From a virus: a stretch of DNA of 64,000 nucleotides. The stretch covers positions 3,708 through 67,707 of IMG/VR virus record IMGVR_UViG_3300025266_000005; one strand, written 5' to 3'. The position numbers were made by a program, and so were the translations under genes. The notes under the pieces were generated by a model. It saw only the letters and a program-made list of their open reading frames with translations. It had not been told where the DNA came from and searched no databases. Shown one piece after another: positions 20,667 to 64,000 of this stretch (position 1 is the first letter of the stretch; each line of letters begins with the position of its first letter).

Positions 20667-20978
20667 TCATAAAGTAAATTCAGGCCCGGCTCTGTGGGCT
20701 TTGTAGTGTGAGTTCTTGCAGGTTTCAAACATCAGTTCAAATACCTGGTCGCTTTCTAATTCAAATGGCACCTGGTGGTAAACCAGATACGCCATGCCGA
20801 GAAGGTTTTGATAACCTTCGTCGTCTTTGTATATTCGCTGGGTGTTTTCTTTGAACGCTTCCCAGTTATCACCTTGATGGCGTATTTCCTGAACGTTACT
20901 GGCGACACCTGCCCGGTAAATGCATTGATCGTGTATTTGTTGCTGGCTTAGCGCGACTGCAAAAAGGAACTCGATCAT
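20667..20978 (-). CDS. Hypothetical protein, homologue of 63570-63881
   Basis: 103 aa, same length and visibly alignable with the prophage B copy. Confidence 0.7.
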   Translation of the reverse strand: MIEFLFAVALSQQQIHDQCIYRAGVASNVQEIRHQGDNWEAFKENTQRIYKDDEGYQNLLGMAYLVYHQVPFELESDQVFELMFETCKNSHYKAHRAGPEFTL

Positions 20979-21097
20979 GTCTTACCCCCGCAGGGTTAGT
21001 TGTCAAAGTCTGTCGTCTATCTCGTGTGGGTATGGATGGTTGTTTGCGTTGTTACGGGCTATTTCTGCCTCAATGCGTCTTTGCTCAAGTCTTAGTG
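20971..21097. repeat. Exact direct repeat copy 1 (copy 2 at 63874-64000, truncated by the window end)
   Basis: 127 identical bases starting TCGATCATGTCTTACCCCCGCAGGG; offset 42,903. Confidence 0.95.
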
Positions 21098-21299
21098 TTT
21101 TGCTTTTGAAATACCAGGTCATCAGTGACTGCGTTAAGAAACCAGCTGCAGCAAAGAAGATACCGGCCAGGATAGCCACAACCGTCCACTCTTCCGGACT
21201 GAGCCAGCCTAAGAACAGTAACCCGGCACTTGCACCGTAGTTTGTCTTTGCTCCTACAGTGGCGGCTGTTTCAGCCAAGTGATGGGTAATGCCTGTCAT
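21003..21299 (-). CDS. Holin-like membrane protein
   Basis: One to two hydrophobic segments, TWYFK and charged C-terminus; first gene of the late operon. Confidence 0.65.
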   Translation of the reverse strand: MTGITHHLAETAATVGAKTNYGASAGLLFLGWLSPEEWTVVAILAGIFFAAAGFLTQSLMTWYFKSKTLRLEQRRIEAEIARNNANNHPYPHEIDDRL

Positions 21300-21333
21300 T
21301 AGTTAATCCTGGTTTCTCCGAACGTGAGGCAAT

Positions 21334-21366
21334 AAAAAACCCCAACACATTTCTGTATTGGGGTTT
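21334..21366 (-). terminator. Late-leader terminator (tR'-like)
   Basis: AAACCCCAATACAG...TGTGTTGGGGTTTTTT on the minus strand. Confidence 0.75.
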
Positions 21367-21372
21367 AGGCTT

Positions 21373-21613
21373 TGCAATGTGATGACCGGTCGTTACTCCG
21401 GTTCTGTAGGAATTTCACCTACTCTTGCGTGTATCGGTGATGGTTTATCTACCTATCAATCCATTGTGAGTGCCGTAACTTTCGGATTGAACGCCCATGC
21501 TTCGCCTAACTCACCTTCGGCTGCTGCACTACAGCTTCACCACATTACAGTACCAACTGTCTCACCAAAGAAACGACTGGAGTTATCCTGTCTTCTCAAT
21601 TGGTACTGTGATG
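21373..21613 (-). ncRNA. Candidate structured non-coding RNA in the late leader
   Basis: 13-bp closing helix 21373-21385/21537-21549 whose two mismatches are G-U only on the minus strand; several internal hairpins; second 14-bp helix 21543-21556/21600-21613. Confidence 0.55.
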
Positions 21614-21713
21614 CAATCTTTCTTAGTCACTTTTCCTAAGTATGGCTTATTAGAACATGTTTGTTTTCAGCTGTAGTGCCTTTTTGTGTGTTATTTTTGG
21701 TGATTTCTTGTGG

Positions 21714-22331
21714 TTAATTAAGTAAATAGTAAACCCGATGACGTAAGGTGCTTAATTTACGGTAATACTCATTTCGATTTATGTCGTGGTCTTGCTCTAC
21801 GTGTGCCAGCCATAGTTCATTTTTTGGCTTTATAGGTGCAAACACCTCTCCATCACCTAGCACCAACTTGCCAGGTTTATGGCCTATTGGCTTAGCTGAT
21901 TTAAACCCTCCATCTCGAATGTTTTTTATCCATCTTTCTCGCTCAATATAATAAAGCACTGTATTTTTCATGAGCTTTGGTTTTTGTTGTGGATTCCTGC
22001 CGCGCTCAGGCTTCAACCAATGGCCTTTACGCGTTACCTCTCCTCTCCACCAGTTACGCTCTATGTAGTGCAATTTACCAACCTTATGCATCATCTCATC
22101 ATCTTCTGATAGCGACAACATATAGCCCATCATAAGCTCTTCTTCTGGGCTTATTGGCTCCTGATATCCACTATAACCAATGACCATCTTTTGCTCAGCG
22201 CTTATATGGTTATATCCTAAATCGTCACCGTCATGCAGTACGTTTCTAGCCCACTCTTCTAGCGCTCTGTCTGCTACCGCCGTAATTGTTCGCTCGGAGA
22301 TCCGATTTGTAGTTTTCGATGGCATATTCAA
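21714..22331 (-). CDS. Late antiterminator Q-like protein
   Basis: LEEWAR...LGY start and HTH-like end (INRNEYYRKL); last early gene before the late leader. Confidence 0.5.
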   Translation of the reverse strand: MNMPSKTTNRISERTITAVADRALEEWARNVLHDGDDLGYNHISAEQKMVIGYSGYQEPISPEEELMMGYMLSLSEDDEMMHKVGKLHYIERNWWRGEVTRKGHWLKPERGRNPQQKPKLMKNTVLYYIERERWIKNIRDGGFKSAKPIGHKPGKLVLGDGEVFAPIKPKNELWLAHVEQDHDINRNEYYRKLSTLRHRVYYLLN

Positions 22332-22557
22332 TATCCTTTAGCAGTAACAGGTAAGGCGGTAACGTTTTAGATGTAACTCGCTTTATGTGCAATTCTTTGA
22401 TGTGGGATGATTCTGGCGTATCTCGCACAACTCGAATGCCTTCACCCTGGAAGTAAAGCTGATGAGCGCCATGCCTCTTAACCTTAATCTCTAGGGCTTG
22501 ATAGTCTCGCGGCGTAAACAGATCCATTACTTTTATATCAATCAATACCTCAGCCAT
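22246..22557 (-). CDS. Hypothetical protein
   Basis: ORF in nin-type region with GGGG RBS. Confidence 0.5.
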   Translation of the reverse strand: MAEVLIDIKVMDLFTPRDYQALEIKVKRHGAHQLYFQGEGIRVVRDTPESSHIKELHIKRVTSKTLPPYLLLLKDIEYAIENYKSDLRANNYGGSRQSARRVG

Positions 22558-22777
22558 TTGACACCCCTTTATGGATATCCATCTTCTCCTGCATTAACCG
22601 CATTTCCTCATTAACCGATCCAGCCTCTTCGTAATGCCTATCTGTTTTATTGCTGTTGCTGGTTAATACGCAGATTGGTTTGCCGAAGATGCGCTCGTAG
22701 TTTTCGTTATAAGCTTTTTGGTCTGCGGTTCTGTTTCGGCTGCCTTTACTCATACGGCTTCTCCCATATTTCTCCAA
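22550..22777 (-). CDS. Hypothetical protein
   Basis: Short ORF coupled to neighbours; likely start MSKGSRNR. Confidence 0.45.
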   Translation of the reverse strand: MEKYGRSRMSKGSRNRTADQKAYNENYERIFGKPICVLTSNSNKTDRHYEEAGSVNEEMRLMQEKMDIHKGVSNG

Positions 22778-23364
22778 CTAATGCTTCTGATTTTTTCCCT
22801 TTGGCTTTCAATAGTTTTAACCAGTGATGCGTTATGCCGTGAGATTTCCTTGTATTTCTCATTGAATGTCTCAAGGTCTGGAAACCGTCTTAATATCCTT
22901 GCCAGCAAAAAAACCTCTCTACCATGATTAGATTCGTGCGTATTGCCGGTCATCCAATCGCTTACATCACGCCAGTCTTTGGTGACAAAAGGGCTGACGA
23001 TGTGTTTTATGTGGCCTCTATTGTTCACGTAGAGCAATCCAAACTTGGGCGGCAAATCTTCAGGTTTAATAATGCCTTCGGGACACATGTAATAACGCCA
23101 TCTACCTAAACCGACTTCGCTGCCGTTTCGATGTGGTTTGTTCTTATCTGATAAGAAATCCGATCGGCTTACCTTGACCTCAACAACAGTTGATTCAGCT
23201 CCGCGCATGGTTAGCTTGAAACCGATAGCGTCAGGACATTCACCATCCCAACCACTTGTGCATTCTGATAATGCGATTTCGCAACCATGGCCTTTTTGAC
23301 TATTTGGTCTTTGCAGCCATTTAACAGCTAATTTGCATAAATCCTTATGTGTCAAATTACTCAT
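22750..23364 (-). CDS. PD-(D/E)XK-like protein (MmcB-like)
   Basis: ECPDAIG...VVEVKVSRSDFLSD...RYYMCP motif. Confidence 0.6.
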   Translation of the reverse strand: MSNLTHKDLCKLAVKWLQRPNSQKGHGCEIALSECTSGWDGECPDAIGFKLTMRGAESTVVEVKVSRSDFLSDKNKPHRNGSEVGLGRWRYYMCPEGIIKPEDLPPKFGLLYVNNRGHIKHIVSPFVTKDWRDVSDWMTGNTHESNHGREVFLLARILRRFPDLETFNEKYKEISRHNASLVKTIESQREKIRSISWRNMGEAV

Positions 23365-23582
23365 CTAAAATGCCTCCCTAAATGTTCTTCGTTAGCCTTG
23401 CATTCCGCACATTTCGTGGTTCCGCCTGTTGCTGCTTGTCGCGCCATCGGTATGCGATTTCCGCAGTCGATACAGTCCTCAGATACCTCTCTTGGCCTAG
23501 CCGCCTCAATAGCCCTTTTCTTGTCACGCAATGCCTGTTCTTTTTCCATTCTCTCGTCTGTTTGGTCGAATATGTCAGCCAT
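23361..23582 (-). CDS. TraR/DksA C4 zinc-finger protein
   Basis: MADIFD...CIDCGNRIPMARQ...CAEC. Confidence 0.85.
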   Translation of the reverse strand: MADIFDQTDERMEKEQALRDKKRAIEAARPREVSEDCIDCGNRIPMARQAATGGTTKCAECKANEEHLGRHFR

Positions 23583-23862
23583 TAATCTGCTCCAATATCT
23601 GCTCCAGGCTGTGAACGATGGCGTAATGACCTTTCCACTCCGCCGCTAACTTGATTTGGCTGTCTTTGATTGCACCGGCTTTAAAGCTTCCGTCTTGCTT
23701 TACTTGGTTTGGAGTTTTTATTTCGAACCAAAATGTGCGATTTTTAGCTCCAACCAAAATGTCATCCATACCTGTTTGGACGGTGAAGCCTAGTTGACGA
23801 AGCTGTTTAACGATGTCGGCTTGGTTTTCATCCACTCTTGCTGCTTGTCTATATTTGCTCAC
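23575..23862 (-). CDS. VRR-NUC-like nuclease
   Basis: ARVDENQ...DILVG...FEIK motif; GTG start with GGAG RBS. Confidence 0.7.
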   Translation of the reverse strand: MSKYRQAARVDENQADIVKQLRQLGFTVQTGMDDILVGAKNRTFWFEIKTPNQVKQDGSFKAGAIKDSQIKLAAEWKGHYAIVHSLEQILEQING

Positions 23863-24146
23863 CAGTAGGACGCTCCAATCCTGAAATGCCACCAGTACAA
23901 ATAAGCGAAGGTACTGCCAACCATTAATGTCGGGATTACTGCTTTGCAGGTAAATCCACCTCCATCACATATCAGCCTCAATCGTTTTCGCTTCATTTCC
24001 GCTTCCTCATCTCAAACTCATTAACCACAATTCGTTTAACCCAATTCTTTAAATGCTCTCGTACTTCGTCTAGCAGTTTTTGGCGCTCTTGCTTTGTTGG
24101 TGCTGCCAGTATTTTAGCTGCGTAATGGCGGGGCCATAGCTCGCCG

Positions 24147-24443
24147 TTAGCCAACCTTCAAAACCCCTTCGTTAAACCGTCTGATATTCGTCAACATGAT
24201 GTAGTGAAGGAATTGCGAATCTCGGTCATCTTTGTTGTGAAAACCTGATGTAGTGCCTTCACTGAATAATTGATCGCACACGTAGCAAAATTCAGCCGTT
24301 GCCATGTCGTGACACTTGATACCTCGACCTTTGCCGTATTGGTGTTGATATGTGCCGTTGAAGTGGCAGGAGTAAGCATCGCTTGAACCGCATCTGATGC
24401 AGGTTGTGCCTTTTGATTTGTCAGTTAGCTTGCTCACTCGCAA
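24147..24443 (-). CDS. Zn-binding HNH-like protein (DUF1364/YbcO-like)
   Basis: CIRC...CH...GRGIKCHD...CYVC. Confidence 0.55.
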   Translation of the reverse strand: MRVSKLTDKSKGTTCIRCGSSDAYSCHFNGTYQHQYGKGRGIKCHDMATAEFCYVCDQLFSEGTTSGFHNKDDRDSQFLHYIMLTNIRRFNEGVLKVG

Positions 24444-24886
24444 CCCCCAATCGTTTTGCCGTCTTTAGTGGTCATGGTTGACCAGTGTTGCCAGCCTTTT
24501 TTGCAATGGAAGCCCCATTCACGTTTTACTGGTCCGGTGATGAAGATTGTCCAGGCTGGCTTGTTACCGACTAATTCAAGGCGGTGTGCGAAATCAGCGG
24601 GCCTGATTGTTAATATGTCTACAAATCTCCGCTTTACCGGAAATAGGTGGTAATACCCGCCTATCCACTGCTCTAACGCTGTTGCCATGTAATGCTCAAC
24701 CACTCGGCCTTTTAATTTTATGCTGATGCTCGCCCACGGATGGTCATGCAAAGCCCTTTCATCATCGTTACCAATAAACTTATGCAAGTAGATATTGAAG
24801 AATCTGTTGCGTGGGATTAGGTGCCATCTGAGAAGATAGCCCGCGCCTATATGTTTGGGTTTGAATGGGTTTTTCATGCTGCCCAC
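24434..24886 (-). CDS. Cupin-like phage protein
   Basis: YLHKF...LHDHPW...HRLEL...WTIFITGP...WGF. Confidence 0.55.
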   Translation of the reverse strand: MGSMKNPFKPKHIGAGYLLRWHLIPRNRFFNIYLHKFIGNDDERALHDHPWASISIKLKGRVVEHYMATALEQWIGGYYHLFPVKRRFVDILTIRPADFAHRLELVGNKPAWTIFITGPVKREWGFHCKKGWQHWSTMTTKDGKTIGGCE

Positions 24887-25269
24887 CTCGCGCTAGGTAA
24901 AGAAATTCCAGCCTCAGCCGCCAATCGGTAACAGGTTTCGATAAGCTCTGAATACTCTTGTTTTTTGAGGGTTTCGCTTGACTTGACGACTTCGATTTCA
25001 CGGCCTGCCAGATTTACGACTGTCGTACCCATTAGCTCAAACTTGCACAGCTCTTTAATCTCGCCTTTTGTGTAACCGGTCTCGTCTGCAAATATGCCGC
25101 ACAGGGTATGGAAGAAAGCGCGCTGCTCTGCTGTTTTGTCTTCTTTGTAATCCTGAACCGTGATGCGATATTTCTTATCTGCCGGTAAAGACTTAAGGCA
25201 CTCGTAAAGACCAACTTTAATTTTGTCGCGTCTCTGGTCATCCAGGAATATGAAGATGCGGGAGAGCAT
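24874..25269 (-). CDS. NinB-like recombination protein
   Basis: KTAEQRAFFH...SSETLKKQEYSELIE motif. Confidence 0.7.
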   Translation of the reverse strand: MLSRIFIFLDDQRRDKIKVGLYECLKSLPADKKYRITVQDYKEDKTAEQRAFFHTLCGIFADETGYTKGEIKELCKFELMGTTVVNLAGREIEVVKSSETLKKQEYSELIETCYRLAAEAGISLPSARWAA

Positions 25270-26687
25270 TAGGCGGCTTCCTTATTCATCAGCCAGAATG
25301 CTTCGGGGACTTTCTTATCTTCTTTTGGAAGCCATGCCCGTTTACGGCCGATAATCAGATCGAATTGCTGGAGTAACATCAGGTCTTTGAAGTAAAGGTG
25401 TACTGTGCCTTTTTGGTATATTCTGGCTTTGAAAAACTCACTTTCTACTGCTTTCCCATAACCAACATCATCAGCATTTAAAGCATCACTGGCCTTGATG
25501 TATCCGGTTTTTCCGGTTATATGCGCTAATGCCCGATCAATATCATCAAGTTGCCTTACCTTTTCCCACTTAACCTTATTGCCCAGCATCCAGCTGTCAG
25601 ACATATTCGGCAAAATCACACGCTTACCAACAAAGAAATAATCGTTGCTTTTCCAGCCCTCGATATGCACTCTGTTTTCTGCGTGGTATCGGGTCATCAG
25701 GTCAAACGCTTCCTCAATACAGTCTTCGATAATCGTGTCATAATCGGCTATCAGGTTTTTCAGGAAGGTTTTAATGTTGTTCGCCGTGAACTCCATCTGG
25801 CTCACAATTTCAAGCTGGCTTTCAAATTCTGTGCGTACTTTCTCAGTCATGTATTTGTGAAAGTCAGCTAGGTTGATAACGGTTCGCCACGCTGATTTAC
25901 GTAAGCCTTCAACGAAGTCATTGAGTGACTGTTTAACCATTTCGGTTTTGTCGCTGCCGTTACCCTCAATCAGATTCGCGTAGTAACTGGCTTCTGCTTC
26001 TGCAATAACCGCTTTGCGTTTCGACATCACTGCGTTGTCATAGGCCAGGACCATGTTTTCAATTCTGCTTTCAGGGATAGCGAGTTGATTGCCGTTTATC
26101 GCTGGCTCGTATTCAGTGCCGGCCGCTTTCATTCCGCCGAAGTAATCAGCGTTTATGCTGTTGCGTTTTTTCAGGTGAACCAGGGCAACGTCAATATCGG
26201 TTTTACGCTCTGCATCGTTGAAAGCGCCCTGGATAAACTCAATGGTTCCATGTTGCTCGATAATGCTGACTAAAAGCTGTCTGGACTTGCTGAATGGATT
26301 GCGGATGGTTTCAGCGTTGAGCAGTGCGATCACGTCTCCGTTGTAAATCAGATCCCACGCTTTCAAAACGTGATCATCGCCGTTACTAAATGGAGGGTTC
26401 ATGATGATGGTGTCGTACTGCTTAGTGCTGGTGTAGGCCAGAAAATCCGTGTCAATTACTCGGTAGCCTGAACCAGTAAGCAAGGCTCTTAGTTCGGGTT
26501 CTTTTTCAATGCAATCAACATTTAGCTTTGGCTGATAGCTACGCTCAAAACGCGCTTTTACAGCCTGAACCAAATCCCCTTTTCCGGCTGATGGCTCCAA
26601 AATTCGATTGCAAAAATCTTTATCAATCATTGAGGCCATGCGCGTGGCTAAGTTACTTGGCGTGGGGTAGAAGTCAGCGTTAAACAT
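25269..26687 (-). CDS. DNA amino-methyltransferase with C-terminal DUF4942-like domain
   Basis: DFYPTP, ILEPSAGKG (SAM-binding), IMNPPF (catalytic) and YQKGTVHLYF. Confidence 0.8.
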   Translation of the reverse strand: MFNADFYPTPSNLATRMASMIDKDFCNRILEPSAGKGDLVQAVKARFERSYQPKLNVDCIEKEPELRALLTGSGYRVIDTDFLAYTSTKQYDTIIMNPPFSNGDDHVLKAWDLIYNGDVIALLNAETIRNPFSKSRQLLVSIIEQHGTIEFIQGAFNDAERKTDIDVALVHLKKRNSINADYFGGMKAAGTEYEPAINGNQLAIPESRIENMVLAYDNAVMSKRKAVIAEAEASYYANLIEGNGSDKTEMVKQSLNDFVEGLRKSAWRTVINLADFHKYMTEKVRTEFESQLEIVSQMEFTANNIKTFLKNLIADYDTIIEDCIEEAFDLMTRYHAENRVHIEGWKSNDYFFVGKRVILPNMSDSWMLGNKVKWEKVRQLDDIDRALAHITGKTGYIKASDALNADDVGYGKAVESEFFKARIYQKGTVHLYFKDLMLLQQFDLIIGRKRAWLPKEDKKVPEAFWLMNKEAA

Positions 26688-26965
26688 CACACCACACCCC
26701 AAATCATCTGCTTACCCTTGCCAAAATCCACGACTGCAACCAGTTTGCGTTCTTCAAGCTCTGGCAATCGACGTGCAAACACGTATCTGTCGTAACCCTC
26801 ATGGGCGTATTTCTCGCCTAATTGCTTACTGGTCATGTTTGGGGATTGCTTAAGGCGTTTTAATACGCCAGCACGTTGCGTTGCAGCACCACCACCCATT
26901 TCCATTTTCATTCCAGCAATGTGGCTTGATACTGGGTCTTTTGTTCTGGTGTTAGTTGTGATCAT
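26687..26965 (-). CDS. Winged-helix DNA-binding protein
   Basis: DPVSSH...MTSKQL...ARRLPELE motif. Confidence 0.6.
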   Translation of the reverse strand: MITTNTRTKDPVSSHIAGMKMEMGGGAATQRAGVLKRLKQSPNMTSKQLGEKYAHEGYDRYVFARRLPELEERKLVAVVDFGKGKQMIWGVV

Positions 26966-26967
26966 GG

Positions 26968-27867
26968 TTAGCTCCTGATTGCCTGAAATGGCTGTGCATC
27001 TGGATTACTGATGAACTGCTGGCTTTCTGGGTGAAAGTACAAGGCGAACTTATCTTCGATGCCTGCGTGCCGTTGTTTGGCTACGATTAGCGATGTATCG
27101 GGATCGAATTTCTCAAACGGTTTCCCTTCACGCTGTTTGGCTTCTTTGTCTTTGTTCCGGTGAACGATGCAGACGTTATCAACGAGATCCGTTATTTCTC
27201 CGGCGCCCTTGATATCGAACTTGTCAGGCACTTTTCCTTCACGCTCAGACTTGCGAACATGATGGACAAGGTGGATATGTATGTTTTTGGACTTAGCCGC
27301 CCAACACAGCTTGTCTACGAAGGATTTTTGAGCGTTGTAGTCATCGACTCCCAGGCCGCACTTGACCAGCGAATCAAGGATGACGTGCTCAACTCCAAGC
27401 TTGGTTGCTGCGTAGTGGATCATGGCAATAATTCTGGGCGCTGGTATCGTGTCTAGTTGGTCATAAATCCATAAACGGCCTTTGGTCGTTTCCATGATTT
27501 TTCTGACATAGCTTTCGGTTGGATTTGATAAGCCAGCCATCTGCCTAACCATGCGATTTATCGTTGAACGTACAGGCATTTCCAGTGATGCAATAAGCCA
27601 TTTGGCTGATGGCATTGTCAGTGCACAGATTTGATTTAGCAGTTGTGATTTACCGTGACCATTTACGCCAGCCCATAGCGTTACTTCGCCAGGGCGTAGT
27701 TGAAAACGTTCGTGCGTTTTAGGCCAAGGAAGCTGCAAACCGGACATGTGTTCGCCATCCTCGAATGACTTCACCGCCATATCAGCAAAATCATTTGCGT
27801 CAAAAATGTATTGGCTTTCTTCCTGTGCTGCGAAATCTAGGAAATCGCTGTCTTTGAGTAATTCCAT
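26968..27867 (-). CDS. DnaB/T7 gp4-type (SF4) replicative helicase
   Basis: WAGVNGHGKS Walker A, SLEM, ILDSL, LVHHVRK, KGAGEITD and KQR motifs. Confidence 0.85.
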   Translation of the reverse strand: MELLKDSDFLDFAAQEESQYIFDANDFADMAVKSFEDGEHMSGLQLPWPKTHERFQLRPGEVTLWAGVNGHGKSQLLNQICALTMPSAKWLIASLEMPVRSTINRMVRQMAGLSNPTESYVRKIMETTKGRLWIYDQLDTIPAPRIIAMIHYAATKLGVEHVILDSLVKCGLGVDDYNAQKSFVDKLCWAAKSKNIHIHLVHHVRKSEREGKVPDKFDIKGAGEITDLVDNVCIVHRNKDKEAKQREGKPFEKFDPDTSLIVAKQRHAGIEDKFALYFHPESQQFISNPDAQPFQAIRS

Positions 27868-29822: not shown

Positions 29823-29916
29823 TGTTTGAACTCCTGGAACTTAAATATTTTTTTCTTGTCATGGCTCGGTTAATCTGGAGTCATGGATAAATCAGCTTTC
29901 AAAAACGCATCAGGCA

Positions 29917-29944
29917 CAAAAAAAGCCCACCCGAAGGTGAGCTG
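29917..29944 (-). terminator. tR1-like terminator after cro
   Basis: GCTCACC-TTCG-GGTGGGC followed by TTTTTTT. Confidence 0.85.
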
Positions 29945-56396: not shown

Positions 56397-56656
56397 TACT
56401 CAGCCTCAAGCATGGATTTGACTTTTTCACGGGCTTTTTCCAGGCCAATGTTTGCCGCCATCTTTTGGCCCATATCTTTTGCAATCTGATGTAACTGTGG
56501 CAATTCCATTTCATCAACAGACTGCAAGGCTTCTGCTTCTGCTTCTGCTTCTAAATCATCATCCTTGGTATCTGGTTTTTTATCCCACCCTTTAGGCAAA
56601 GCTCCTTCATGCCACTTCTGCTTACCATCTTTGTAGCCTAGAATTAATACGGGCAT
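56396..56656 (-). CDS. Small protein after coat gene
   Basis: 86 aa, acidic linker, helical HeH-like tail. Confidence 0.5.
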   Translation of the reverse strand: MPVLILGYKDGKQKWHEGALPKGWDKKPDTKDDDLEAEAEAEALQSVDEMELPQLHQIAKDMGQKMAANIGLEKAREKVKSMLEAE

Positions 56657-56669
56657 TTCTATTCCCCTT

Positions 56670-56705
56670 AAAACGACAAAGGGAGCCGAAGCTCCCTATT
56701 GTCGA
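56670..56705 (-). terminator. Terminator after coat gene
   Basis: CGACAATAGGGAGC-TTCG-GCTCCCTTTGTCG followed by TTTT. Confidence 0.8.
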
Positions 56706-56719
56706 GGTTTGTTAAGTGA

Positions 56720-57967
56720 TTAAGATTGACCGCCGATCAAGATGCCGTTTTTCTCAGGGTGCTTATTAGTCACGCCGAAGAAGATGGTCATACGATAGGT
56801 TGTCTTGCCGGTGAACACATCAGATGAGCGGGCAAACAGAATTTCAATGCCTGACTCAGTTGTCATACGCTCAACGGCTACGTTAGGCGCTGCATCAAAC
56901 ACCAGATTACCGCCGAACACTTCAATAGAGTCATTGGTAAAGAAGATGTTTGATTGAGCCGCTGTTGTGTTCAACCAAGTCAGCGCCACGCCATCTGCTG
57001 CAGGAGCCGAGCAGTTTGCGTAATCATCTTCAAGGTTGCTGTTTCCATCATTCACCACAATAGCGGGCGCAATCTTCAACGTAGTTCCGTTAACAACTTC
57101 TTTCACGGTGAACGTTTTCAATTGCTGCGTATTGTTTTTATTGATGTGTGACAGAGCGTTAACACCAGCGATAGTGAACTTATCACCAGCCGCAACACCA
57201 GCCGTATTATCTACGGTCAGATTCATGAAGCGGTTATCCACTTTTGATTCTTCGCCTGTTGATGCGGTCGATGTTGCTACCGGAACGTAACGCTGAGTAC
57301 CGCCAACCAGAGTCGCGCCACCTGCAGCAGCAGCCACAGTTGGAGCAAACGAGCTACGGAACGTGTTAAAGCCAGCAATACGTCCAAGCTCGCTCTCGCT
57401 TAATGCTTTTTCAGAGCGATTCATTAGCGTGCGTTTCGCCAGATCGCCCGACATACGGTTGTAATCCCGTGGCGCAAGCACCATGGTTTTTTCCATATCG
57501 GACAAATCATTTTCAAGCATCAATGCTTCAACCAGAGAAACATCATCATATCCAGCCAATACTGTTGACTGAGCAACAGTCAAAGAGCCTTCAATGTTGA
57601 CCTTGTTAGCCATTGCGCGGTTAACAAATGCAGATAACGCCTGCGCGCCACTTTTAGCCTTACGTTCCCGATAAGATGGATCGCGAAGCTCCAAGGCATT
57701 CAGCTGCCAAGGTACGTTCTCAATGTTGGATAAGGTTGCAGGCACCTGGAACTCACCGATATCACCAATTTTGCCGGTAATATCCAAACCAGATACCGTG
57801 GTTGAAATCATAGGCACATCACGCCAGACAGTATCGCCTTGACGCTGCATATTTCCTTCCGGTTGCGTGAAGAACTCAGCTTGCTTAGCAACGGTATTGT
57901 CACTGTCAAACTGCTTCACAACTTCTTCGATGAGGGAGACCTCATCTTTATTTAGCTTATTAGCCAT
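56720..57967 (-). CDS. Major capsid protein (P22 coat family)
   Basis: MQRQGDTVWR, ELRD, AGDKFTIAGV I-domain and PEKNG motifs. Confidence 0.9.
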   Translation of the reverse strand: MANKLNKDEVSLIEEVVKQFDSDNTVAKQAEFFTQPEGNMQRQGDTVWRDVPMISTTVSGLDITGKIGDIGEFQVPATLSNIENVPWQLNALELRDPSYRERKAKSGAQALSAFVNRAMANKVNIEGSLTVAQSTVLAGYDDVSLVEALMLENDLSDMEKTMVLAPRDYNRMSGDLAKRTLMNRSEKALSESELGRIAGFNTFRSSFAPTVAAAAGGATLVGGTQRYVPVATSTASTGEESKVDNRFMNLTVDNTAGVAAGDKFTIAGVNALSHINKNNTQQLKTFTVKEVVNGTTLKIAPAIVVNDGNSNLEDDYANCSAPAADGVALTWLNTTAAQSNIFFTNDSIEVFGGNLVFDAAPNVAVERMTTESGIEILFARSSDVFTGKTTYRMTIFFGVTNKHPEKNGILIGGQS

Positions 57968-57978
57968 GGGACTTTCCC

Positions 57979-58908
57979 TTATTTAGAAGCGCCCAAAATC
58001 TGCTTCTTACGGTCAAGGTATTGCTGCATCGTGATAGCACCTTTCTCATACTGCTTAAACGCTGCACTAATCTTGGCTTCAGTGGCATTTGCTCCCGGCT
58101 CCGCTCCTTCAAGCGGGTCAACCGGGTTTGGGCTGAATGATTTGCTTGGCTTCAGTTTCAATGATTCTGAGAGCCGACCTATTTCAGCAGCACCACGAAT
58201 AGGATTGGTTTGAATTAAATCAGCGAGTCGCCGGGCTTCCTTCTCGTTCTTGCCGAGGTGGTAAACCAGCGCATGTGAGTCTTCATCAAAATTAGCAATG
58301 ATGTGATTCACATTGTCTTCACCCAGGATTTCCATCACCTTATCTTCTGACACGTCATAATCTTTCACTTCAAGCGTTAAGGCGCGCTCATAATGCCCCC
58401 GCTGCTTTTGCTCCAGCTCTTGACGTTTCGCCGCTTCTTGCTGCTGCTGTAAGGTGTTGTTCTGGCTTTCCTGGTATCGCTGATGCGCCGCTTCTTCTGC
58501 TTTTTTAATGAGGTACGATTCATGCGCTTTTCTGAACGCTGGATCGTATTCCCCACCATCAAAGTCATCAGGGTTTGGCGCTGCATCTGGTTTGGGCTGT
58601 TGCGTGCGTTGCTGTACCGCTAACTCTAAAAGCTTGTTCTTCTGCCTTAAGAGCTCCAGTTCAGTTTTAGCCGCTTCAGCTTCTTCAGATACCTTTTCCA
58701 CTTTGCGATTAGCTCTTGCCACTCGCTTTTGGATCCAATCTGTTTTATGTTGCTGCTTGTCTTGAGGCTGCGTATCTTCCTCACCCTGACCATCGCCTTC
58801 CGCTTCATTCTCGTCAGCTTCTTCCGACTCAATCTCTTCGGTTTCCACTTCCTCAAATTCATTTTCTTCAGGCGTGTTTTGGTCTAGGTTTTCCGCTTCT
58901 GTGCCCAT
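57979..58908 (-). CDS. Scaffolding protein
   Basis: Acidic N-terminus, PNPDDF, LVYHLGKN...EIGRL; position before coat. Confidence 0.85.
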   Translation of the reverse strand: MGTEAENLDQNTPEENEFEEVETEEIESEEADENEAEGDGQGEEDTQPQDKQQHKTDWIQKRVARANRKVEKVSEEAEAAKTELELLRQKNKLLELAVQQRTQQPKPDAAPNPDDFDGGEYDPAFRKAHESYLIKKAEEAAHQRYQESQNNTLQQQQEAAKRQELEQKQRGHYERALTLEVKDYDVSEDKVMEILGEDNVNHIIANFDEDSHALVYHLGKNEKEARRLADLIQTNPIRGAAEIGRLSESLKLKPSKSFSPNPVDPLEGAEPGANATEAKISAAFKQYEKGAITMQQYLDRKKQILGASK

Positions 58909-58971
58909 GTTTTTACCTCTAATGGTGTGTGAGTGTGTGCGAATATGCACCCGGCTTAAAGTCGCCGTGAC

Positions 58972-61026
58972 TTAATTCAGACCTCGCGCTTGGCCTAAAA
59001 CTTGATTGCGGATCTCCATCAGCCCTTTGCTATATTCCATCTTGGTTTTAGTCTGGCTGTTTTGTATGTCCGCGAATATTTCTTGTGTTTCTGCTGCCTT
59101 CTTCTCAGCACTGGCAATTTTCTCGATAGAGCTAGCATCAAGGTTTTTAGCCTCTGCTATTTGCTGAGCGGCTGCAGCTTCCATTAATTTCTGATTCGGA
59201 TCTTCTTGTGGCTGTGTTGCCTGGGCGAGCCATTCTTTTTCTTCATCCGTTTGCGGCTCAATCAAGCTCTGCAACATCATTTGCTTGCGGTTAAACTCTT
59301 TTAGTGGACCCATACCCACACCACTTGCGTTATCCAGCATGGTGGAGATAATGACGTCCAGATATTTTTCGCCCGCCGCCGTGCCCTTCAGTGTTTCTGA
59401 GATACCTTTCAAGTCTTCAACTGTTTGCTCTTTCATGCTGCCGTATTCTGGACCTACATCAGCATGAGCCCGGAAACGTTTGCCACGTAATGTGTTCGCT
59501 TCAATCAAGCGGCCTGTTTTTGGATCAGCAATGACCTTAAACAGGGTTTCTTTACCCTCTGAGCCATCCTTGCCAAGCGTTCTAACCATCTGTTTGGTGC
59601 TGTAGATATCTGATGCAATAGATTGGTACAAGTCACCAGCAGCAACGAATGATTTCTCAATGTTGTGCCGTATGCTTTGCGTGGTCAGATTGCGTTGTTT
59701 GATCATTGCGTTGATGGCCTTGCCGGACGCATCTGGATCTAACGTGTCCTGTGGTGCGCCACCTGTCACTTCACGCAGGAAGTTAGGAATAATCTCAATC
59801 AATTCTGATGTGCTTTGGTCAAGCATTGGTGGCTTGTTGTAGCCAATTGGACCCGATGAAACGATATTGCCATCACCATCTGTCAATGGGTCAACATACA
59901 AAAACGGTTTATTGTTCTTGTCAGCCCAAAGCTGAGCAACATCCTGAGCTTCTATCTGCTCACGGCCAAAGATAGGTACTTCCTGTCCAGCTGATGCAGC
60001 ATTTTCGACCAACTGATTCATCTGCACGTTAAATGACCGACAAGGATCCTTAATGGGGCGAATCAAGCCGAAGTAGTACTCAACGCCGTTAATAAATGCA
60101 CGATAGGCGTACATCGGGATAATCGGTAATCTAGTTCCCGCTATCTGGCGCGGCTCTTCAATAAACTCGTTACCAACAAAGCGCGACATCATTACCTTAC
60201 GGCTGATGATTTTTCTTTCTTTTACAAACCGATGCGTTTGACTGCTTTTTAGCTCATCCTTAATCAGTTCGTGATCGTCTTTGCTGTACATTTCCACCTG
60301 ACCAGATGCCAGGTTGTTGTAGATATATACAGGCTCTTTCTTTTTAACTATCTCGTAACGTGTCGCAACATACACTTCATTCGCTGAGCCGTTCTCATTC
60401 AGATAGCTGCGGTCTTGTGGCGTATAAGCTGAAGATGGCTCAACATCCGGAAACTCACTCTCAAACGCGTCTATAGTGTATGGCGTAAGCTCTGTTACCC
60501 ATCGTGCGTCCTGCTTATCTGCACGCCTTGCTGAGCGGTCATAAAATACGGAATTGTAGGCGTTATGAATTGGACGCCAGACAATCTTCTGTAACTCGTT
60601 CTCAGGGTCTTCCTCGTCCCGGTACTCGGTAAACATGCCATAAGCGCCAAAACCACAAGTCGCGCACTCATCAATCGCCGTCTCTACAGCTTCACGGCCT
60701 GAGTTATCGCGAAAGTCGGCGCGGTAAATGCCAGACAGTAGCTCTGCATCATCATCGGTTGTTGCGTCATCGTCTGGATCGTATTCAACACCCAAACGAC
60801 TGAGACTGTATTCACCGACAAACTTATTCTTTACCTGTGATGCGTAATCAAATTGAAGCCTTGCACGCCCTTGAAACTCCTTCTCAAGAAAGTTTTCCCA
60901 CTGCCCACCGTCAACGTAGATAAAGCGCATGTCTTCATCTGCTTTGTCCCGCTGTTCTGAGAGAATATCAGCGTCTTTAGCAATGTCCCGCTTGAAGCGG
61001 TCGAGCATTTCTAATTCTTCTTCCAC
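58972..61026 (-). CDS. Portal protein (P22 family)
   Basis: GGQW, IPMYAYR...GLIRPIKDP and SGKAI motifs, barrel-like C-terminal coil. Confidence 0.9.
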   Translation of the reverse strand: MEEELEMLDRFKRDIAKDADILSEQRDKADEDMRFIYVDGGQWENFLEKEFQGRARLQFDYASQVKNKFVGEYSLSRLGVEYDPDDDATTDDDAELLSGIYRADFRDNSGREAVETAIDECATCGFGAYGMFTEYRDEEDPENELQKIVWRPIHNAYNSVFYDRSARRADKQDARWVTELTPYTIDAFESEFPDVEPSSAYTPQDRSYLNENGSANEVYVATRYEIVKKKEPVYIYNNLASGQVEMYSKDDHELIKDELKSSQTHRFVKERKIISRKVMMSRFVGNEFIEEPRQIAGTRLPIIPMYAYRAFINGVEYYFGLIRPIKDPCRSFNVQMNQLVENAASAGQEVPIFGREQIEAQDVAQLWADKNNKPFLYVDPLTDGDGNIVSSGPIGYNKPPMLDQSTSELIEIIPNFLREVTGGAPQDTLDPDASGKAINAMIKQRNLTTQSIRHNIEKSFVAAGDLYQSIASDIYSTKQMVRTLGKDGSEGKETLFKVIADPKTGRLIEANTLRGKRFRAHADVGPEYGSMKEQTVEDLKGISETLKGTAAGEKYLDVIISTMLDNASGVGMGPLKEFNRKQMMLQSLIEPQTDEEKEWLAQATQPQEDPNQKLMEAAAAQQIAEAKNLDASSIEKIASAEKKAAETQEIFADIQNSQTKTKMEYSKGLMEIRNQVLGQARGLN

Positions 61027-62484
61027 TTAAAATCTCTTCAGGTTAGGGATGGTGATTGGTTTTCGTATTTTTATGGCTCTTGCTGTCTGCACTTTCTGAA
61101 TTGCATCAAACATTGGATCAAGCTGATCGTCATGCGCCCCACTTGGGAAGCTCTCAGACTCACTTAGAAAATCGGATAGGTAATCTGCCACTTCCGGCAA
61201 TAGAACGTTGCCTGACTCAATGAATGGGGCTGCGTCATAGCCGCGCGTTATCTTGTCTACGTTGCGCTGTATTGGCAGGACTGGAATGCCCTCACGCCGT
61301 AACGTTTGAATCAATCCTGTGCCGCTTGCTTTGTCTTCAACGTTAAGTGCTCGCGGTGCAACCTTGCGGCCTAAGTGCTTTAACCAGAATGAACGGGTTT
61401 GAACTAATAACTCTGGTGCTTCCCATTTGCCGCGCTTTAAGTCTAGCAATACAGCCTGGCCGTTTATGGTCCTACCCCAAAGCTCAAGGACGCTGAAATC
61501 GTTTTCTTCCTTGGTCTTCATTGCTGTATCAGCAAAGACCTCGCAAAACTCAATCTCTGGCTCTTCAAGGTAGTACTGATACCACTGCGTTTTGATAATG
61601 CCGCCGCCGCGTGGTGCTGGTTGCTGCTGTAATTGTCCAGCCGCACCATAACTGCCCAATGTTTTTTCAAGCTCTTGAACTTGTTCCTCGTCAAACCGCT
61701 CAGGGAACATCAGCTCGCCTTCTTCGGTTCGTGGGTCTTTCCACCCGATAGAGGTTTTACATATTCGTGTTGGGTCAAAGCGCATCGGAATAAACAGATG
61801 CTCATACTTGAGACCCATATCCAGAATGACTCCTGACGTATCTTTCTCGTTGAGCCGCTGCATGATTACAACAATTGCTGACTTGCTGGAGTTGATCCGA
61901 GTCGGCAATGTTTCGGTAAACGCTATGCGTGCAGCTTCAAGCTTTAAATCACTGTTTGCACTGTCTGCGCTAATAGGGTCATCGAGTATTACTCTGTCAC
62001 CACGCACACCAGTCATTGATGTGAATGAGCGTGCTTGCCTTACACCTTTACGGGTATTGCCAAACTCACGCTTACCATCAAGTGATGGGTCAAGACCTAT
62101 CGTCCAAAGGCTTTGATACCAATCTGACTTGATGAGATCGCGACATTTACGGCTATCACGTATTGCAAGCGTTTCTTCATGCGCCGTACCAATGAAACGC
62201 ATTTCAGGTAAACCTTTCGGCCCCCATTCCCACGCTGGCCAGATAACGCCAGTAAGCAGGCTTTTCATTGTGCCTGGCGGGACATTCATCAGTAGACGGT
62301 TAATGCGCCCATCTGTGACCGCTTCAAGGTGCAAGCAGATAGCATCTAAAGCCCAACCCCACTTTAGTTCTGCAACAGGCTCTAATACCTTCCACGCACG
62401 CTTAGCAAACTCAGCAAGAGAGCGTGAACATAACTCCCTTTCAATTGCTAATAAATCATCCTGCGTCAGAACTGGTGTGTTCAT
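61027..62484 (-). CDS. Terminase large subunit
   Basis: NVPPGTMKS, ILDDP, MQRL, QQQPAP, EDKASG and FPSGAHDDQLD motifs. Confidence 0.9.
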   Translation of the reverse strand: MNTPVLTQDDLLAIERELCSRSLAEFAKRAWKVLEPVAELKWGWALDAICLHLEAVTDGRINRLLMNVPPGTMKSLLTGVIWPAWEWGPKGLPEMRFIGTAHEETLAIRDSRKCRDLIKSDWYQSLWTIGLDPSLDGKREFGNTRKGVRQARSFTSMTGVRGDRVILDDPISADSANSDLKLEAARIAFTETLPTRINSSKSAIVVIMQRLNEKDTSGVILDMGLKYEHLFIPMRFDPTRICKTSIGWKDPRTEEGELMFPERFDEEQVQELEKTLGSYGAAGQLQQQPAPRGGGIIKTQWYQYYLEEPEIEFCEVFADTAMKTKEENDFSVLELWGRTINGQAVLLDLKRGKWEAPELLVQTRSFWLKHLGRKVAPRALNVEDKASGTGLIQTLRREGIPVLPIQRNVDKITRGYDAAPFIESGNVLLPEVADYLSDFLSESESFPSGAHDDQLDPMFDAIQKVQTARAIKIRKPITIPNLKRF

Positions 62485-63001
62485 AAGCCTTCATCAGTTC
62501 TTGAAGTGTTTCAGTGCTTAGTTTTGATGCGTCTAATCCGGCCTTAGGCGTCATACTTCCATCTGGTGATTGGTGGTCTAAACTCACCTTATCGCCATAG
62601 GCTTTTGGCTTAAGTTTTGACATCAACCATTTGCGTGACTCAATACGAAGCTTTGACCGCTGAATGTGTTCGTGATCGACAACCTCCATATCGTTATCGC
62701 CACGCGTAACAGTCATGTAATCGTTCTTGCCTTCATCGGCTATATCAAGGATTTCCTCAGCCATGTAATCAGCTTGCAACTCTTTCGCGCGCGTGTATTT
62801 GTCGGCAATTGACTTGTCTTCAACGATCCACTCCATAATCGTCTGACGTGTTGGCATTTCATGTGGTGCTGTTTTAACGATGGACTCAATACCTAATGAT
62901 GTTGTGGCAACTTTCTGAAACACATACTCAACAACTTTATCTCTATGCCATTCCTTCTTGTTTTTACGCATAGGGTTACTATTAACGGCCACTACGCCCA
63001 T
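62456..63001 (-). CDS. Terminase small subunit (Sf6 gp1-like); start may be 62971
   Basis: YTRAKELQADYMAEEILDIAD...RKWLMSKLKPKAYGDK. Confidence 0.85.
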   Translation of the reverse strand: MGVVAVNSNPMRKNKKEWHRDKVVEYVFQKVATTSLGIESIVKTAPHEMPTRQTIMEWIVEDKSIADKYTRAKELQADYMAEEILDIADEGKNDYMTVTRGDNDMEVVDHEHIQRSKLRIESRKWLMSKLKPKAYGDKVSLDHQSPDGSMTPKAGLDASKLSTETLQELMKAYEHTSSDAG

Positions 63002-63282
63002 CCTTTAGTGATCTGCACCCGTTTAACGGCATCGACTGTCCAGTTTGGAAGTGTCGCTGTTCTTACGAGATACCAAAGCCCAACATCAAGTGATGCTGTT
63101 TCTTCTGGTGTCAGGATAAATTCAATTTTGCTGTTGATGGCTGAGCCTTCTTTCTCAATAACAGGATCGCTTCCAGGAAACTGCTTTACCTCAAACGTGT
63201 AAATTGCATCTTCAAATACACCGCAAGCATCGGCTATAAAGTAATAGCTGGTTCCTTGTGGGATTTGGTCTGGTGCTGGCAT
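62992..63282 (-). CDS. Small beta-sandwich protein (BppU-N-like pattern)
   Basis: IPQGTS...LTPEETASLDVGLWY pattern. Confidence 0.45.
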   Translation of the reverse strand: MPAPDQIPQGTSYYFIADACGVFEDAIYTFEVKQFPGSDPVIEKEGSAINSKIEFILTPEETASLDVGLWYLVRTATLPNWTVDAVKRVQITKGWA

Positions 63283-63557
63283 TAGCCGTTAGCCTGATTC
63301 TTACGTGAGTATTCGATTTTTGTCGCAACGGTAAACGTTAAGGTTTTCGCGTCACTAGGAACGCCGCGCACAGTCCCCTGAAGTAGCTCTACCGGCGCAT
63401 CAAAATTTCCGGTATCGTACTCGTAAACACAGTCAGCGGTAGGCGCCCAAAAAGTAATATTTGAAAGGTCATGAGTTAAAGCTGCCGCATTACTGCCGCC
63501 AGGCACAAAAGCTTGCGCTACCTGACCGTTTAGCTTGCTAAAATCTTCATCTGCCAT
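63282..63557 (-). CDS. Small beta-rich protein (possible capsid vertex/spike base)
   Basis: 91 aa, GAGG RBS, beta-strand pattern. Confidence 0.45.
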   Translation of the reverse strand: MADEDFSKLNGQVAQAFVPGGSNAAALTHDLSNITFWAPTADCVYEYDTGNFDAPVELLQGTVRGVPSDAKTLTFTVATKIEYSRKNQANG

Positions 63558-63569
63558 GGTTGGCCTCGT

Positions 63570-63881
63570 TTATAAATTAAATTCTTGCTTTGTTATCGGA
63601 GTTTTCTTGTGTCCCGCATTACAGGCATCAAATATCAGTTCAAATACCTGGTCAGGACTAAATTCAATAGATGCTTCGTGGTAGACCAGATAGGCAATGC
63701 CTAACAGGTTGTGGTAGCCCTCATCGTCTTTGTAGATTTTCTGTGTTTTGGCTTGAAAGGTTTCCCAGTCATCGCCTTCATGTCTGGCTTCCTGTACTCG
63801 GCTTGCGACACCCGCTTGATAAATGCATTGATCTTGAATTTGCTGTTGGCTTAATACGACTGCAAAGAGTAATTCGATCAT
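63570..63881 (-). CDS. Hypothetical protein, homologue of 20667-20978
   Basis: MIELLFAVVLSQQQIQDQCIYQAGVAS aligns with the copy in prophage A. Confidence 0.7.
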   Translation of the reverse strand: MIELLFAVVLSQQQIQDQCIYQAGVASRVQEARHEGDDWETFQAKTQKIYKDDEGYHNLLGIAYLVYHEASIEFSPDQVFELIFDACNAGHKKTPITKQEFNL

Positions 63882-64000
63882 GTCTTACCCCCGCAGGGTT
63901 AGTTGTCAAAGTCTGTCGTCTATCTCGTGTGGGTATGGATGGTTGTTTGCGTTGTTACGGGCTATTTCTGCCTCAATGCGTCTTTGCTCAAGTCTTAGTG
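63874..64000. repeat. Exact direct repeat copy 2, including the 3' end of the holin gene (63906->64000)
   Basis: Identical to 20971-21097. Confidence 0.95.

Follow-up and report, generated by a model that had tools for sequence, protein, structure and literature searches.

Two virion modules on one early region

How a single viral contig comes to carry two virion modules of different morphotype, both joined to an identical holin sequence, is the question raised by the 67,707-bp IMG/VR virus contig IMGVR_UViG_3300025266_000005 (C1). The window analysed here comprises 64,000 nt (positions 3,708 to 67,707), so that the contig's final base, C1:67707, coincides with window base 64000. A preliminary description of this DNA had proposed a tandem double lysogen or a locus that switches morphotype, with a complete 42.9-kb phage genome bracketed by a repeat. 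We consider it likely that the record is not one physical locus, and that it represents an assembler's walk through a graph of two cycles sharing one edge.

Three parts were distinguished, namely a contractile-tail module (M), an early region (S) and a short-tail module (P) (Table 1). In M, portal, MuF-like, protease/scaffold, head, sheath, tube and hub proteins (matched families phrog_146, 324/15127, 530, 264, 205, 280 and 196) make up a Mu-like head and a contractile tail on a lambdoid chassis; the label "SfV-like" is applied to M in the sense of PMC3603311, on the basis of module make-up. In P, portal, scaffold, coat, gp4-/gp10-like adaptor and ejection proteins (phrog_156, 648, 283, 637, 578 and 598) point to a P22-like virion, and no sheath, tube or tape measure was found in this module. 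A needle (gp26-like) protein was not recognised in P either. Its 986-aa spike matches no PHROG or Pfam family, shows no P22 gp9-type head-binding domain, and shares its N-terminus with the fibre of the myovirus-type module. The PHROGs content therefore bears out the claim that one copy of the repeat leads into a contractile-tail module and the other into a P22-like short-tail module. Besides, the flanks of P are homologous to those of M at both ends (methyltransferase, Rz-like spanin, endolysin, fibre ends, 103-aa gene).

Region S combines an integrase and att site, repressor and cII, an O-like initiator with helicase, and nin-type genes in lambda order, as in lambdoid temperate phages. From the inventory given earlier for the 42,903 bp between the repeat copies, holin, replication, immunity, integrase, att, lysis and virion genes were recovered, whereas Bet/Exo were not, the recombinases being of the RecT/RecE type. 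The "Q-like" and xis assignments could not be confirmed, as the 205-aa ORF at 21714-22331 matched no PHROG or Pfam family and no xis gene was identified.

Table 1. Features of the contig, in window coordinates unless prefixed C1.
Feature	Position	Strand	Remark
Module M	1..20970, extends to C1:114 outside window	-	Mu-like head + contractile tail; PHROGs matches, ORFs
1162-aa fibre, endolysin, Rz-like spanin, methyltransferase (M)	C1:214-5586		PHROGs/ORFs
Baseplate hub (M)	6235-7668	-	PHROGs
Tube-like protein (M)	10355-10768	-	PHROGs
Tail sheath (M)	10781-11920	-	PHROGs
Major head protein (M)	14045-15064	-	PHROGs
Protease (M)	15568-16689	-	PHROGs
MuF-like protein (M)	16686-17474	-	PHROGs
Portal, Mu-type (M)	17474-18775	-	PHROGs
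Large terminase (M)	18814-20178	-	PHROGs
103-aa gene, M-type	20667..20978	-	65% aa identity to P-type copy
127-bp repeat, internal copy	20971..21097	.	M and P merge into S; exact match to terminal copy
Holin	21003-21299	-	
Early region S	21098..41420	.	holin, late leader, replication, immunity, recombination, integrase, attP
Terminator-like hairpin	21337-21366	-	13 pairs then T run, just before holin
205-aa ORF ("Q-like")	21714-22331	-	upstream of hairpin
NinB-like	24874-25269	-	
Methyltransferase (S)	25269-26702	-	
Helicase	26968-27933	-	
Branch node, k=31 graph	27861..27890	.	O-like initiator/helicase boundary; minor ~7x path exits S
O-like initiator	27867-28532	-	
HNH (S)	28502-29041	-	
cII-like	29370-29822	-	
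Repressor	30128-30877	+	
RecT-like	33607-34524	+	
RecE-like	34521-36215	+	
Methyltransferase (S, second)	36870-37430	+	
Integrase	39316-40461	+	
Internal copy of contig's first 113 bases	41421..41533	.	60 bp integrase-side attP arm, then att core
attP core, 3'-terminal 51 nt of tRNA-Val(GAC)-like sequence	41482..41532	-	overlap of attL + attR matches, Methylophaga MAG prophage
Module P, P22-like	41534..63873	-	PHROGs matches
Methyltransferase (P)	41688-42491	+	
Rz-like spanin (P)	43066-43539	-	
Endolysin (P)	43532-44050	-	
Spike, 986 aa (P)	44110-47070	-	
HNH (P)	47622-48131	-	
Ejection protein (P)	53138-54001	-	
Head closure Hc3 (P)	54592-55950	-	
Adaptor Ad3 (P)	55950-56396	-	
Coat (P)	56720-57967	-	
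Scaffold (P)	57979-58950	-	
Portal, phrog_156 (P)	58972-61026	-	
Large terminase (P)	61027-62484	-	
Small terminase (P)	62456-63001	-	
103-aa gene, P-type	63570..63881	-	65% aa identity to M-type copy
127-bp repeat, terminal copy	63874..64000	.	final 127 bases of 67,707-bp contig

Both contig ends repeat internal sites

Direct comparison revealed that window 20971-21097 and 63874-64000 agree at 127 of 127 bases, as had been reported up to the window edge. Identity does not extend leftward, where the preceding base differs (c at 20970, t at 63873), and rightward it stops only where the sequence runs out at the contig end. The repeat spans the 3' end of the holin gene and a short gap, and reaches 8 bases into the M-type 103-aa gene; identity thus ends just inside the diverged 103-aa homologues, as previously noted, whose proteins are 65% identical and match no PHROG or Pfam family. 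Homologous DNA immediately outside the repeat is ~71% identical between the copies (79.0% over 448 nt in an alignment across the repeat flank, the 127 identical bases included), and relatives are 91-94% identical in the adjoining stretch 21098-21366, which argues that the exact identity over 127 bp is not due to conservation. The largest SPAdes k-mer is 127, and the repeat is exact, of k-mer length and abuts the contig end, the features of an assembly-graph repeat. As described for phage U136B (PMC8104045), 127-bp terminal repeats are a familiar signature of SPAdes where the assembled phage genome is circular or permuted, and in both cases an exact 127-bp repeat touching the contig end would reflect the graph and not the molecule. 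In contrast to U136B, the terminal 127-mer here matches an internal site instead of the opposite end, and the opposite end has its 113-bp counterpart at a second internal site, which gives two cycles and not one.

This second match involves the first 113 bases of the contig, outside the window, which are those of window 41421-41533 (C1:1-113 equals C1:45128-45240); beyond it, similarity goes on at ~83% over 1,051 aligned nt. Compared with the 127 bases at the contig end, this repeat is 14 bases shorter, for which we can only guess at trimming or at a variant beside the contig start. The window itself contains no complete tRNA, and an intact tRNA-Val(gac) lies in a Methylophaga metagenome-assembled genome (MAG) at C9:17879-17955. 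Both att junctions have the attP form (integrase arm, core, late arm), and an ORF survey across the 67.7-kb record found neither host DNA nor host genes. Since contig bases 1-113 recur at attP, M, like P, is bordered by S on either side. With both ends being copies of internal sites, the contig has two periods, M+S of 45,127 bp and S+P of 42,903 bp, and can be read as a figure-eight walk, M+S+P, that takes in two circles.

Assembly graph and depth

Run X1, a possible source run, was consulted through its Logan k=31 contigs, which hold 1.00 of the sampled words. One contig begins exactly at 20971 and continues unbranched across 21097/21098 to 21863, so that this independent k=31 assembly of the probable source run has a branch at 20971 and none at 21098; no second continuation past the repeat was found in the k=31 contigs for at least 893 bases. 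The identity, which the preliminary description could follow only to 21097, would reach at least 21863 in this graph. Both virion modules run into one single holin and leader sequence, in agreement with the proposal that two phages of differing morphotype share an identical late-operon entry. A contig break at 21834 bears a 17-letter loose end, which we take to be sequencing-adapter-like.

The longest S contigs listed have depths of 82.4, 82.5, 83.3, 76.3, 63.3, 53.2, 72.1 and 80.5. Depths of M and P were obtained indirectly, by bin arithmetic on contig-level k-mer depths over a 20-kb stretch in this one possible source run: from the mean of 82.1 in the first bin (20600-21266) follow ~75-76x for M and hence ~7x for P, and a check on the second bin gave 86.1 calculated against 86.2 observed. 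The resulting estimates are ~76x for M, ~82x for S and ~7x for P, with an S:M ratio of ~1.09 and P at about one tenth of M. In a 1:1 tandem, M and P would be equally deep and S twice as deep. These indirect values therefore fit neither a 1:1 tandem nor a cointegrate.

Within S, the contig covering 25762-27890 has a depth of 83.3 and the next, 27861-29643, one of 76.3; this drop of 7.0 matches the depth estimated for P, and on one contig a 255-letter loose end lies behind 27890. As a minor ~7x branch exits S at this point, the 42.9-kb "genome" that had been called complete is probably partly chimeric. The branch might nevertheless come from an M-phage variant rather than from the P phage, in which case S+P is possibly a true 42.9-kb genome.

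Host and relatives

The hosts belong to the Methylophaga lineage, and attachment is in tRNA-Val. DNA comparison with 50,697 phage records gave no similarity beyond two matches of 52 and 79 nt. In all eight loci examined, a holin of 93-95% aa identity is followed by a homologue of the 103-aa gene, and then by P-type genes in four loci and by a different small-terminase-like gene in the other four, which in the MAG leads into a siphovirus-type module. A search for relatives with this early chassis had been suggested; in the relatives, the holin/103-aa junction recurs with podovirus- or siphovirus-type modules. S-like holin and cII genes are found in each of the four P-type relatives. The prophage of the Methylophaga MAG (L006, C9 about 17905-61264) shares with C1 the att core in tRNA-Val(GAC), an integrase of 90% DNA identity, a holin of 95% aa identity, the 103-aa homologue, a similar fibre N-terminus, and endolysin and Rz-like spanin beside attR, but its virion is siphovirus-type (tail terminator, major tail protein, tape measure) and it is integrated, with host DNA on its flanks.

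G002, a 39,990-bp IMG/VR record with direct terminal repeats that is rated 100% complete, combines a P-type module with S-like early genes. Like the Tara contigs L078 and L079, it carries the P-type module after the holin, 103-aa, 91- and 96-aa genes, together with an S-like cII of 96-98% aa identity. These three differ from C1 in that they share only mosaic patches of S (80-98% identity), that their large terminase is of another type, 29-30% identical to the M terminase, and that all of them lack the M module. In addition, provirus G005 (44,718 bp, rated 94% complete) has 16 proteins colinear with the M module at 43-93% aa identity, and a contig of 45,411 bp from two other marine studies shows patchwise colinearity with S. 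Given G002, G005 and this contig, each circle appears to be a natural architecture.

Proposed explanation and alternatives

The match of the terminal 127-mer to one internal site, and of the contig start to a second, points to a walk over two cycles. We propose that the linear walk M+S+P was made by a de Bruijn-graph assembler (in all likelihood SPAdes with k=127) through a graph in which S would be the shared edge, M (contractile tail) and P (short tail) the alternative edges, and each end a halt on re-entering sequence already used. Two or more temperate phages of a Methylophaga-type host, occurring together and attaching in tRNA-Val(GAC), would lie behind the graph. The dominant one would be M+S, 45,127 bp, circular or circularly permuted; the minor relative, which would carry P, would share base-identical DNA with it at both S borders. 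On the late-leader side this DNA shows no branch over at least 0.9 kb and probably extends 6.9 kb, as far as the O/helicase boundary, and on the integrase side it measures at least 113 bp. The initiator, immunity and recombination segment of the minor phage is probably its own. The jump from ~71-83% to 100% identity would then stem from recent recombination between relatives at module borders, presumably by a homologous crossover, which RecT/RecE-type genes could catalyse, or by a site-specific one at att. The pattern is thus most likely ordinary phage mosaicism, lambdoid style, between two related marine phages, and the programmed morphotype switching suggested earlier finds no support, since ordinary recombination among relatives living side by side accounts for what is seen. 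The refuting case formulated at that time, a misassembly of two unlinked phages at the repeat, comes close to this explanation.

It is possible, if somewhat doubtful, that a module swap was caught nearly in the act, with one Methylophaga population currently re-pairing one chassis with different virion modules. Under this reading, ~6.9 kb of late-leader/holin/nin/helicase DNA and the integrase/att DNA would be base-identical between a myovirus-type and a podovirus-type temperate phage, next to flanks at 71-83%, RecT/RecE-type genes and/or Int at the common att would be the agents, and additional minor recombinants would exist in the immunity region. A siphovirus-type version of the chassis occurs elsewhere.

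Rather unlikely, in our view, is a graph walk over two phages in which the P phage shares the whole of S, so that S+P is a true, complete P22-like temperate phage of 42,903 bp, identical to the myovirus-type phage across 20.3 kb of early genes. P does enter S at 20971 and no other path opens at 21098, at least 113 bp of the integrase-side arm are identical, the contig crosses S unbroken, and S depth dips to 63 and 53, which exceed the 7x of P, imply other variants that could own the 27890 branch. Nevertheless, the depth lost there (83.3 to 76.3) equals that estimated for P (82.4 minus about 75.5), and the natural P-type relatives G002, L078 and L079 share mere patches of S.

Real linkage, whether in a tandem double lysogen at tRNA-Val or in a heterodimer circle (S-M-S-P) formed by Int, the two S copies having been collapsed by the assembler, is quite improbable. 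The S/P att looks like attP, as would the middle junction of a tandem array, att core and integrase end are common to both phages, and, judged from contigs alone, a minor tandem subpopulation would give the same k-mers and depths as free genomes. However, S:M is ~1.09 and not 2, P is estimated at one tenth of M, and the left end of M is the integrase arm, where an array needs host DNA; prophages on host contigs are single in the stretches examined (the MAG contig of L006; L079, within a contig of 98.7 kb). Neither host DNA at an outer att nor, by the indirect depths, equal M and P copies with doubled S were found. Together with two att junctions in attP form, contig ends that copy internal sites and a repeat as long as the assembler k-mer, this argues against the one-locus linkage originally put forward. 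A pure mis-join, in which the early region of the P phage is unrelated to S save for a short identical stretch, is very improbable: a contig end at a k-mer vertex proves just at least 127 shared bases, yet the k=31 graph offers no second continuation over at least 893 bases, P and M flanks are homologous at both ends, and S-like holin and cII occur in each of the four P-type relatives.

Lambdoid mosaicism in Methylophaga phages

Lambdoid enterobacterial phages (PMC3603311) include lambda-like siphoviruses, P22-like podoviruses and SfV-like lambdoid myoviruses. As here, a single type of chassis for early functions, regulation and integration is paired with virion modules of siphoviruses, podoviruses or myoviruses, and exchange takes place at module borders. 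Gene order is also the same (integrase, recombination, repressor/cII, O-like initiator and helicase, NinB, late leader with terminator, lysis and virion genes). In contrast to those phages, the host lineage is the marine methylotroph Methylophaga, the recombinases are RecT/RecE-type, PHROG/Pfam comparison found no recognisable Q protein, and the lysis genes lie in two places, the holin preceding the virion genes and the endolysin and spanin following them.

Although filed as a single linear virus of 67.7 kb, 100% complete, the record is most likely two genomes concatenated, a warning for database users; contig-end repeats of k-mer length that match internal sites merit an automatic flag. Raw reads or an isolate would allow rates of recombination between morphotypes to be measured. 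What is seen is lambdoid-style mosaicism in a new host group, a clean case of that pattern outside the enterobacteria, in which a Methylophaga chassis is paired with siphovirus, myovirus or podovirus modules, the junctions repeatedly fall at the same gene borders, and DNA is shared in one sample without detectable divergence.

Repeats at the ends of the contig

The preliminary description had reported one identical sequence leading into a contractile-tail module and a short-tail module, and this was confirmed: window positions 20971-21097 and 63874-64000 are exactly identical over 127 bases, the base just before them differs, and identity stops only at the end of the sequence, the right edge of the window being also the end of the 67,707-bp contig (C1). 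Another repeat involves the start of the contig, beyond the window: C1:1-113 is identical to window 41421-41533, which consists of the integrase-side attP arm (60 bp) and then the att core. Both contig ends duplicate internal sites, so that the module with a Mu-like head and a contractile tail (M) and the P22-like module (P) each have the shared early region (S) on both sides, with two periods, M+S of 45,127 bp and S+P of 42,903 bp.

At 127 bases, the terminal repeat is as long as the largest SPAdes k-mer. A graph edge running into a vertex always shares exactly its last k bases, whatever the length truly in common, and the 127 bp are therefore a lower bound on the shared DNA. The repeat at the contig start, with 113 bases, is 14 shorter than the 127 expected of a k-mer vertex. 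Both att junctions are in the attP form, and no host DNA was found anywhere in the 67.7-kb contig. Taken together, the duplicated internal sites, the repeat of k-mer length, the attP-form junctions and the lack of host DNA argue that the contig is a walk through an assembly graph over two circles, M+S and S+P, and not a locus; the earlier interpretations (single locus, tandem lysogen, morphotype switch) are unsupported. IMG/VR classes the record as 'linear', and CheckV rates it 100% complete. An exact 40-mer from the repeat had no matches in viral_contigs, from which records close to the window may be missing. Terminal repeats of 127 bp in SPAdes assemblies are routinely taken to indicate that a phage genome is circular or permuted (PMC8104045).

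Parts of the contig and their features, with Logan contigs of the probable source run X1 across the early region (main contigs, the longest listed per stretch) and the DNA identity between modules M and P. Positions are those of the window or, where marked C1, of the whole contig.
Feature	Position	Content or value
Early region S	21098-41420	lambda-like gene order
S, late side		strong terminator-like hairpin (21337-21366) ahead of holin; NinB-like protein; methyltransferase
S, replication		helicase, O-like initiator, HNH endonuclease
S, immunity		cII-like protein, repressor
S, recombination and integration		RecT-like, RecE-like, second methyltransferase, integrase
Holin	21003-21299	start of late operon
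150-aa ORF	24434-24886	nin-like region
HNH endonuclease gene in S	28502-29041	adjoins O-like initiator
186-aa DNA methyltransferase gene	36870-37430	present/absent cassette
Module P	41534-63873	P22-like
P, head and tail genes		small and large terminase, portal phrog_156, scaffold, coat, Ad3, Hc3, ejection protein
P, far end		986-aa spike (44110-47070), endolysin, Rz-like spanin, methyltransferase
Methyltransferase phrog_8156 in P	41688-42491	opposite strand, beside att
170-aa ORF in P	42562-43074	extra ORF
Endolysin and Rz-like spanin in P	43066-44050	after spike, beside att
HNH endonuclease gene in P	47622-48131	among tail genes, between fibre-like gene and spike
Module M	20970 down to C1:114	Mu-like head and contractile-tail set
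M, head genes		large terminase, portal phrog_146, MuF-like protein, protease, major head protein
M, tail genes		tail sheath, tube-like protein, baseplate hub
M, far end		1162-aa fibre (C1:2098-5586), endolysin, Rz-like spanin, methyltransferase
Methyltransferase phrog_8156 in M	C1:214-1059	opposite strand, beside att
Endolysin and Rz-like spanin in M	C1:1052-2036	after fibre, beside att
X1 contig	20971-21863	depth 82.4
X1 contig	21834-25346	depth 82.5
X1 contig	25762-27890	depth 83.3
X1 contig	27861-29643	depth 76.3
X1 contig	29819-31466	depth 63.3
X1 contig	32157-32878	depth 53.2
X1 contig	33653-36406	depth 72.1
X1 contig	36377 onward	depth 80.5
M vs P, att and methyltransferase		82.8%
M vs P, Rz, endolysin and fibre C-terminus		82.6%
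M vs P, fibre N-terminus		88.6%
M vs P, 103-aa gene region		79.0% with the 127 identical bases, ~71% without

Depth in the source run

Among the 14 runs listed, X1, a marine metagenome, is the sole one to hold all sampled words of 16001-26000 and is possibly the source run, while X2-X14 hold 0.05-0.11 of the sampled words each; the three of these 13 small-share runs that were examined (X2, X3 and X5) contain diverged relatives of 90-95% likeness. Depths were taken from the Logan k=31 contigs of X1 over the stretch 20600-40599. One of these contigs starts exactly at 20971 and continues unbroken to 21863, which indicates that the shared sequence has two predecessors and a single continuation in the reads. 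Contig depths were summed per base, a rule that gives 86.1 for bin 2 compared with 86.2 observed. For bin 1, with a mean of 82.1, the rule places M at ~75-76x and consequently P at ~7x, the latter value being derived by arithmetic. At 27890, where the O-like initiator adjoins the helicase, a contig with a 255-letter loose end is found and the main path drops by 7.0x. From these indirect depth figures we infer a minor population of the P phage, which has 20971-27890 in common with the dominant M phage, takes a separate path beyond that point and rejoins before the integrase. Elsewhere the depth dips by more than 7.0x, a variant at 29873 reaches 11.3x, and the methyltransferase gene is deleted (36879 to 37437) at 2.3x; these features show that further minor recombinants are present.

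Homology between the two modules

DNA comparison revealed that M and P are homologous at their ends only, with identity rising to 100% at both borders of S. No PHROG or Pfam family was found for either of the 103-aa proteins, nor for the 160-, 91- and 96-aa proteins downstream of their genes. That identity stops where the att core does was considered as proof of an Int-mediated crossover, but this was dropped: the late arms are only ~90% identical, and a first mismatch would be expected after a few bases wherever the crossover lay. The parts do not differ clearly in GC content, at 45.6% in M, 43.4% in S and 46.1% in P.

The lysis cassette is split: in both modules the holin begins the late operon, and the genes for endolysin and Rz-like spanin close it. 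The latter two are at the far end in a prophage of a Methylophaga MAG as well, where they lie beside attR. The 1162-aa fibre and the 986-aa spike share 75% aa identity over the N-terminal ~120 aa and 93% over the C-terminal 176 aa, and differ in their centres; in the siphovirus-type MAG prophage, the N-terminal DNA of the receptor-binding protein is also ~86% identical. Such a common N-terminal domain across three tail types is unexpected if the domain anchors the protein to the virion. The two phrog_8156 methyltransferases share 87% aa identity, and a position next to att is a frequent place of lysogenic-conversion genes.

Further genes of S and P

The preliminary assignment of a Q-like gene is unproven, as the 205-aa ORF concerned matches no PHROG or Pfam family. 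The 150-aa ORF may be an auxiliary metabolic gene, judged from its match (E 3e-46) to a PHROG with the annotation cysteine dioxygenase. Both HNH genes may be homing elements, which could promote local recombination. The 186-aa methyltransferase gene is cleanly present or absent, and its deletion joint, with six replacement letters, also occurs in relatives in three other runs. Module P contains no sheath, tube or tape measure gene; its 170-aa ORF carries a weak PEP-CTERM-like tail below Pfam's threshold. No complete tRNA was found in the window.

Relatives and known systems

Eight loci of relatives were examined (L002-L006 and L078-L080), some of which may be duplicates of each other. All eight have a holin with 93-95% aa identity and, next to it, a 103-aa homologue, after which four (L002, L005, L078 and L079) lead into P-type genes and four (L003, L004, L006 and L080) into a small-terminase-like gene, the onward module being typed for the MAG only; none of the eight continues into M. 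In L002 the 103-aa gene is M-type (90% aa identity) and the genes after it are P-type, so that junctions fall on the other side of this gene too. The Methylophaga MAG (L006) has a holin homologue of 95% identity in a prophage of ~43 kb, which lies in tRNA-Val(GAC), has an att core matching window 41482-41532 and carries a siphovirus-type virion module. Two records bear on the genome format, namely a 39,990-bp P-type phage (G002) with terminal repeats and S-like early genes, rated 100% complete, and a 44,718-bp provirus (G005), in which 16 M proteins are colinear and the chassis is a different one. Each circle is thus a natural genome format, unlike the 67.7-kb sum.

When S was compared by megablast with 50,697 phage records, nothing matched beyond two trivial stretches (79 and 52 nt), and with respect to these records the phages are without a close cultured relative. 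A literature search on Methylophaga prophages gave no paper titled on Methylophaga phages among the matches listed. In enterobacterial lambdoids, lambda-like siphoviruses, P22-like podoviruses and SfV-like myoviruses are all represented (PMC3603311). The present phages work alike, but they belong to a new host group. The 67.7-kb record is most likely a mis-filed database record, and the co-occurring temperate phages behind it offer a good natural case of modules exchanged very recently.
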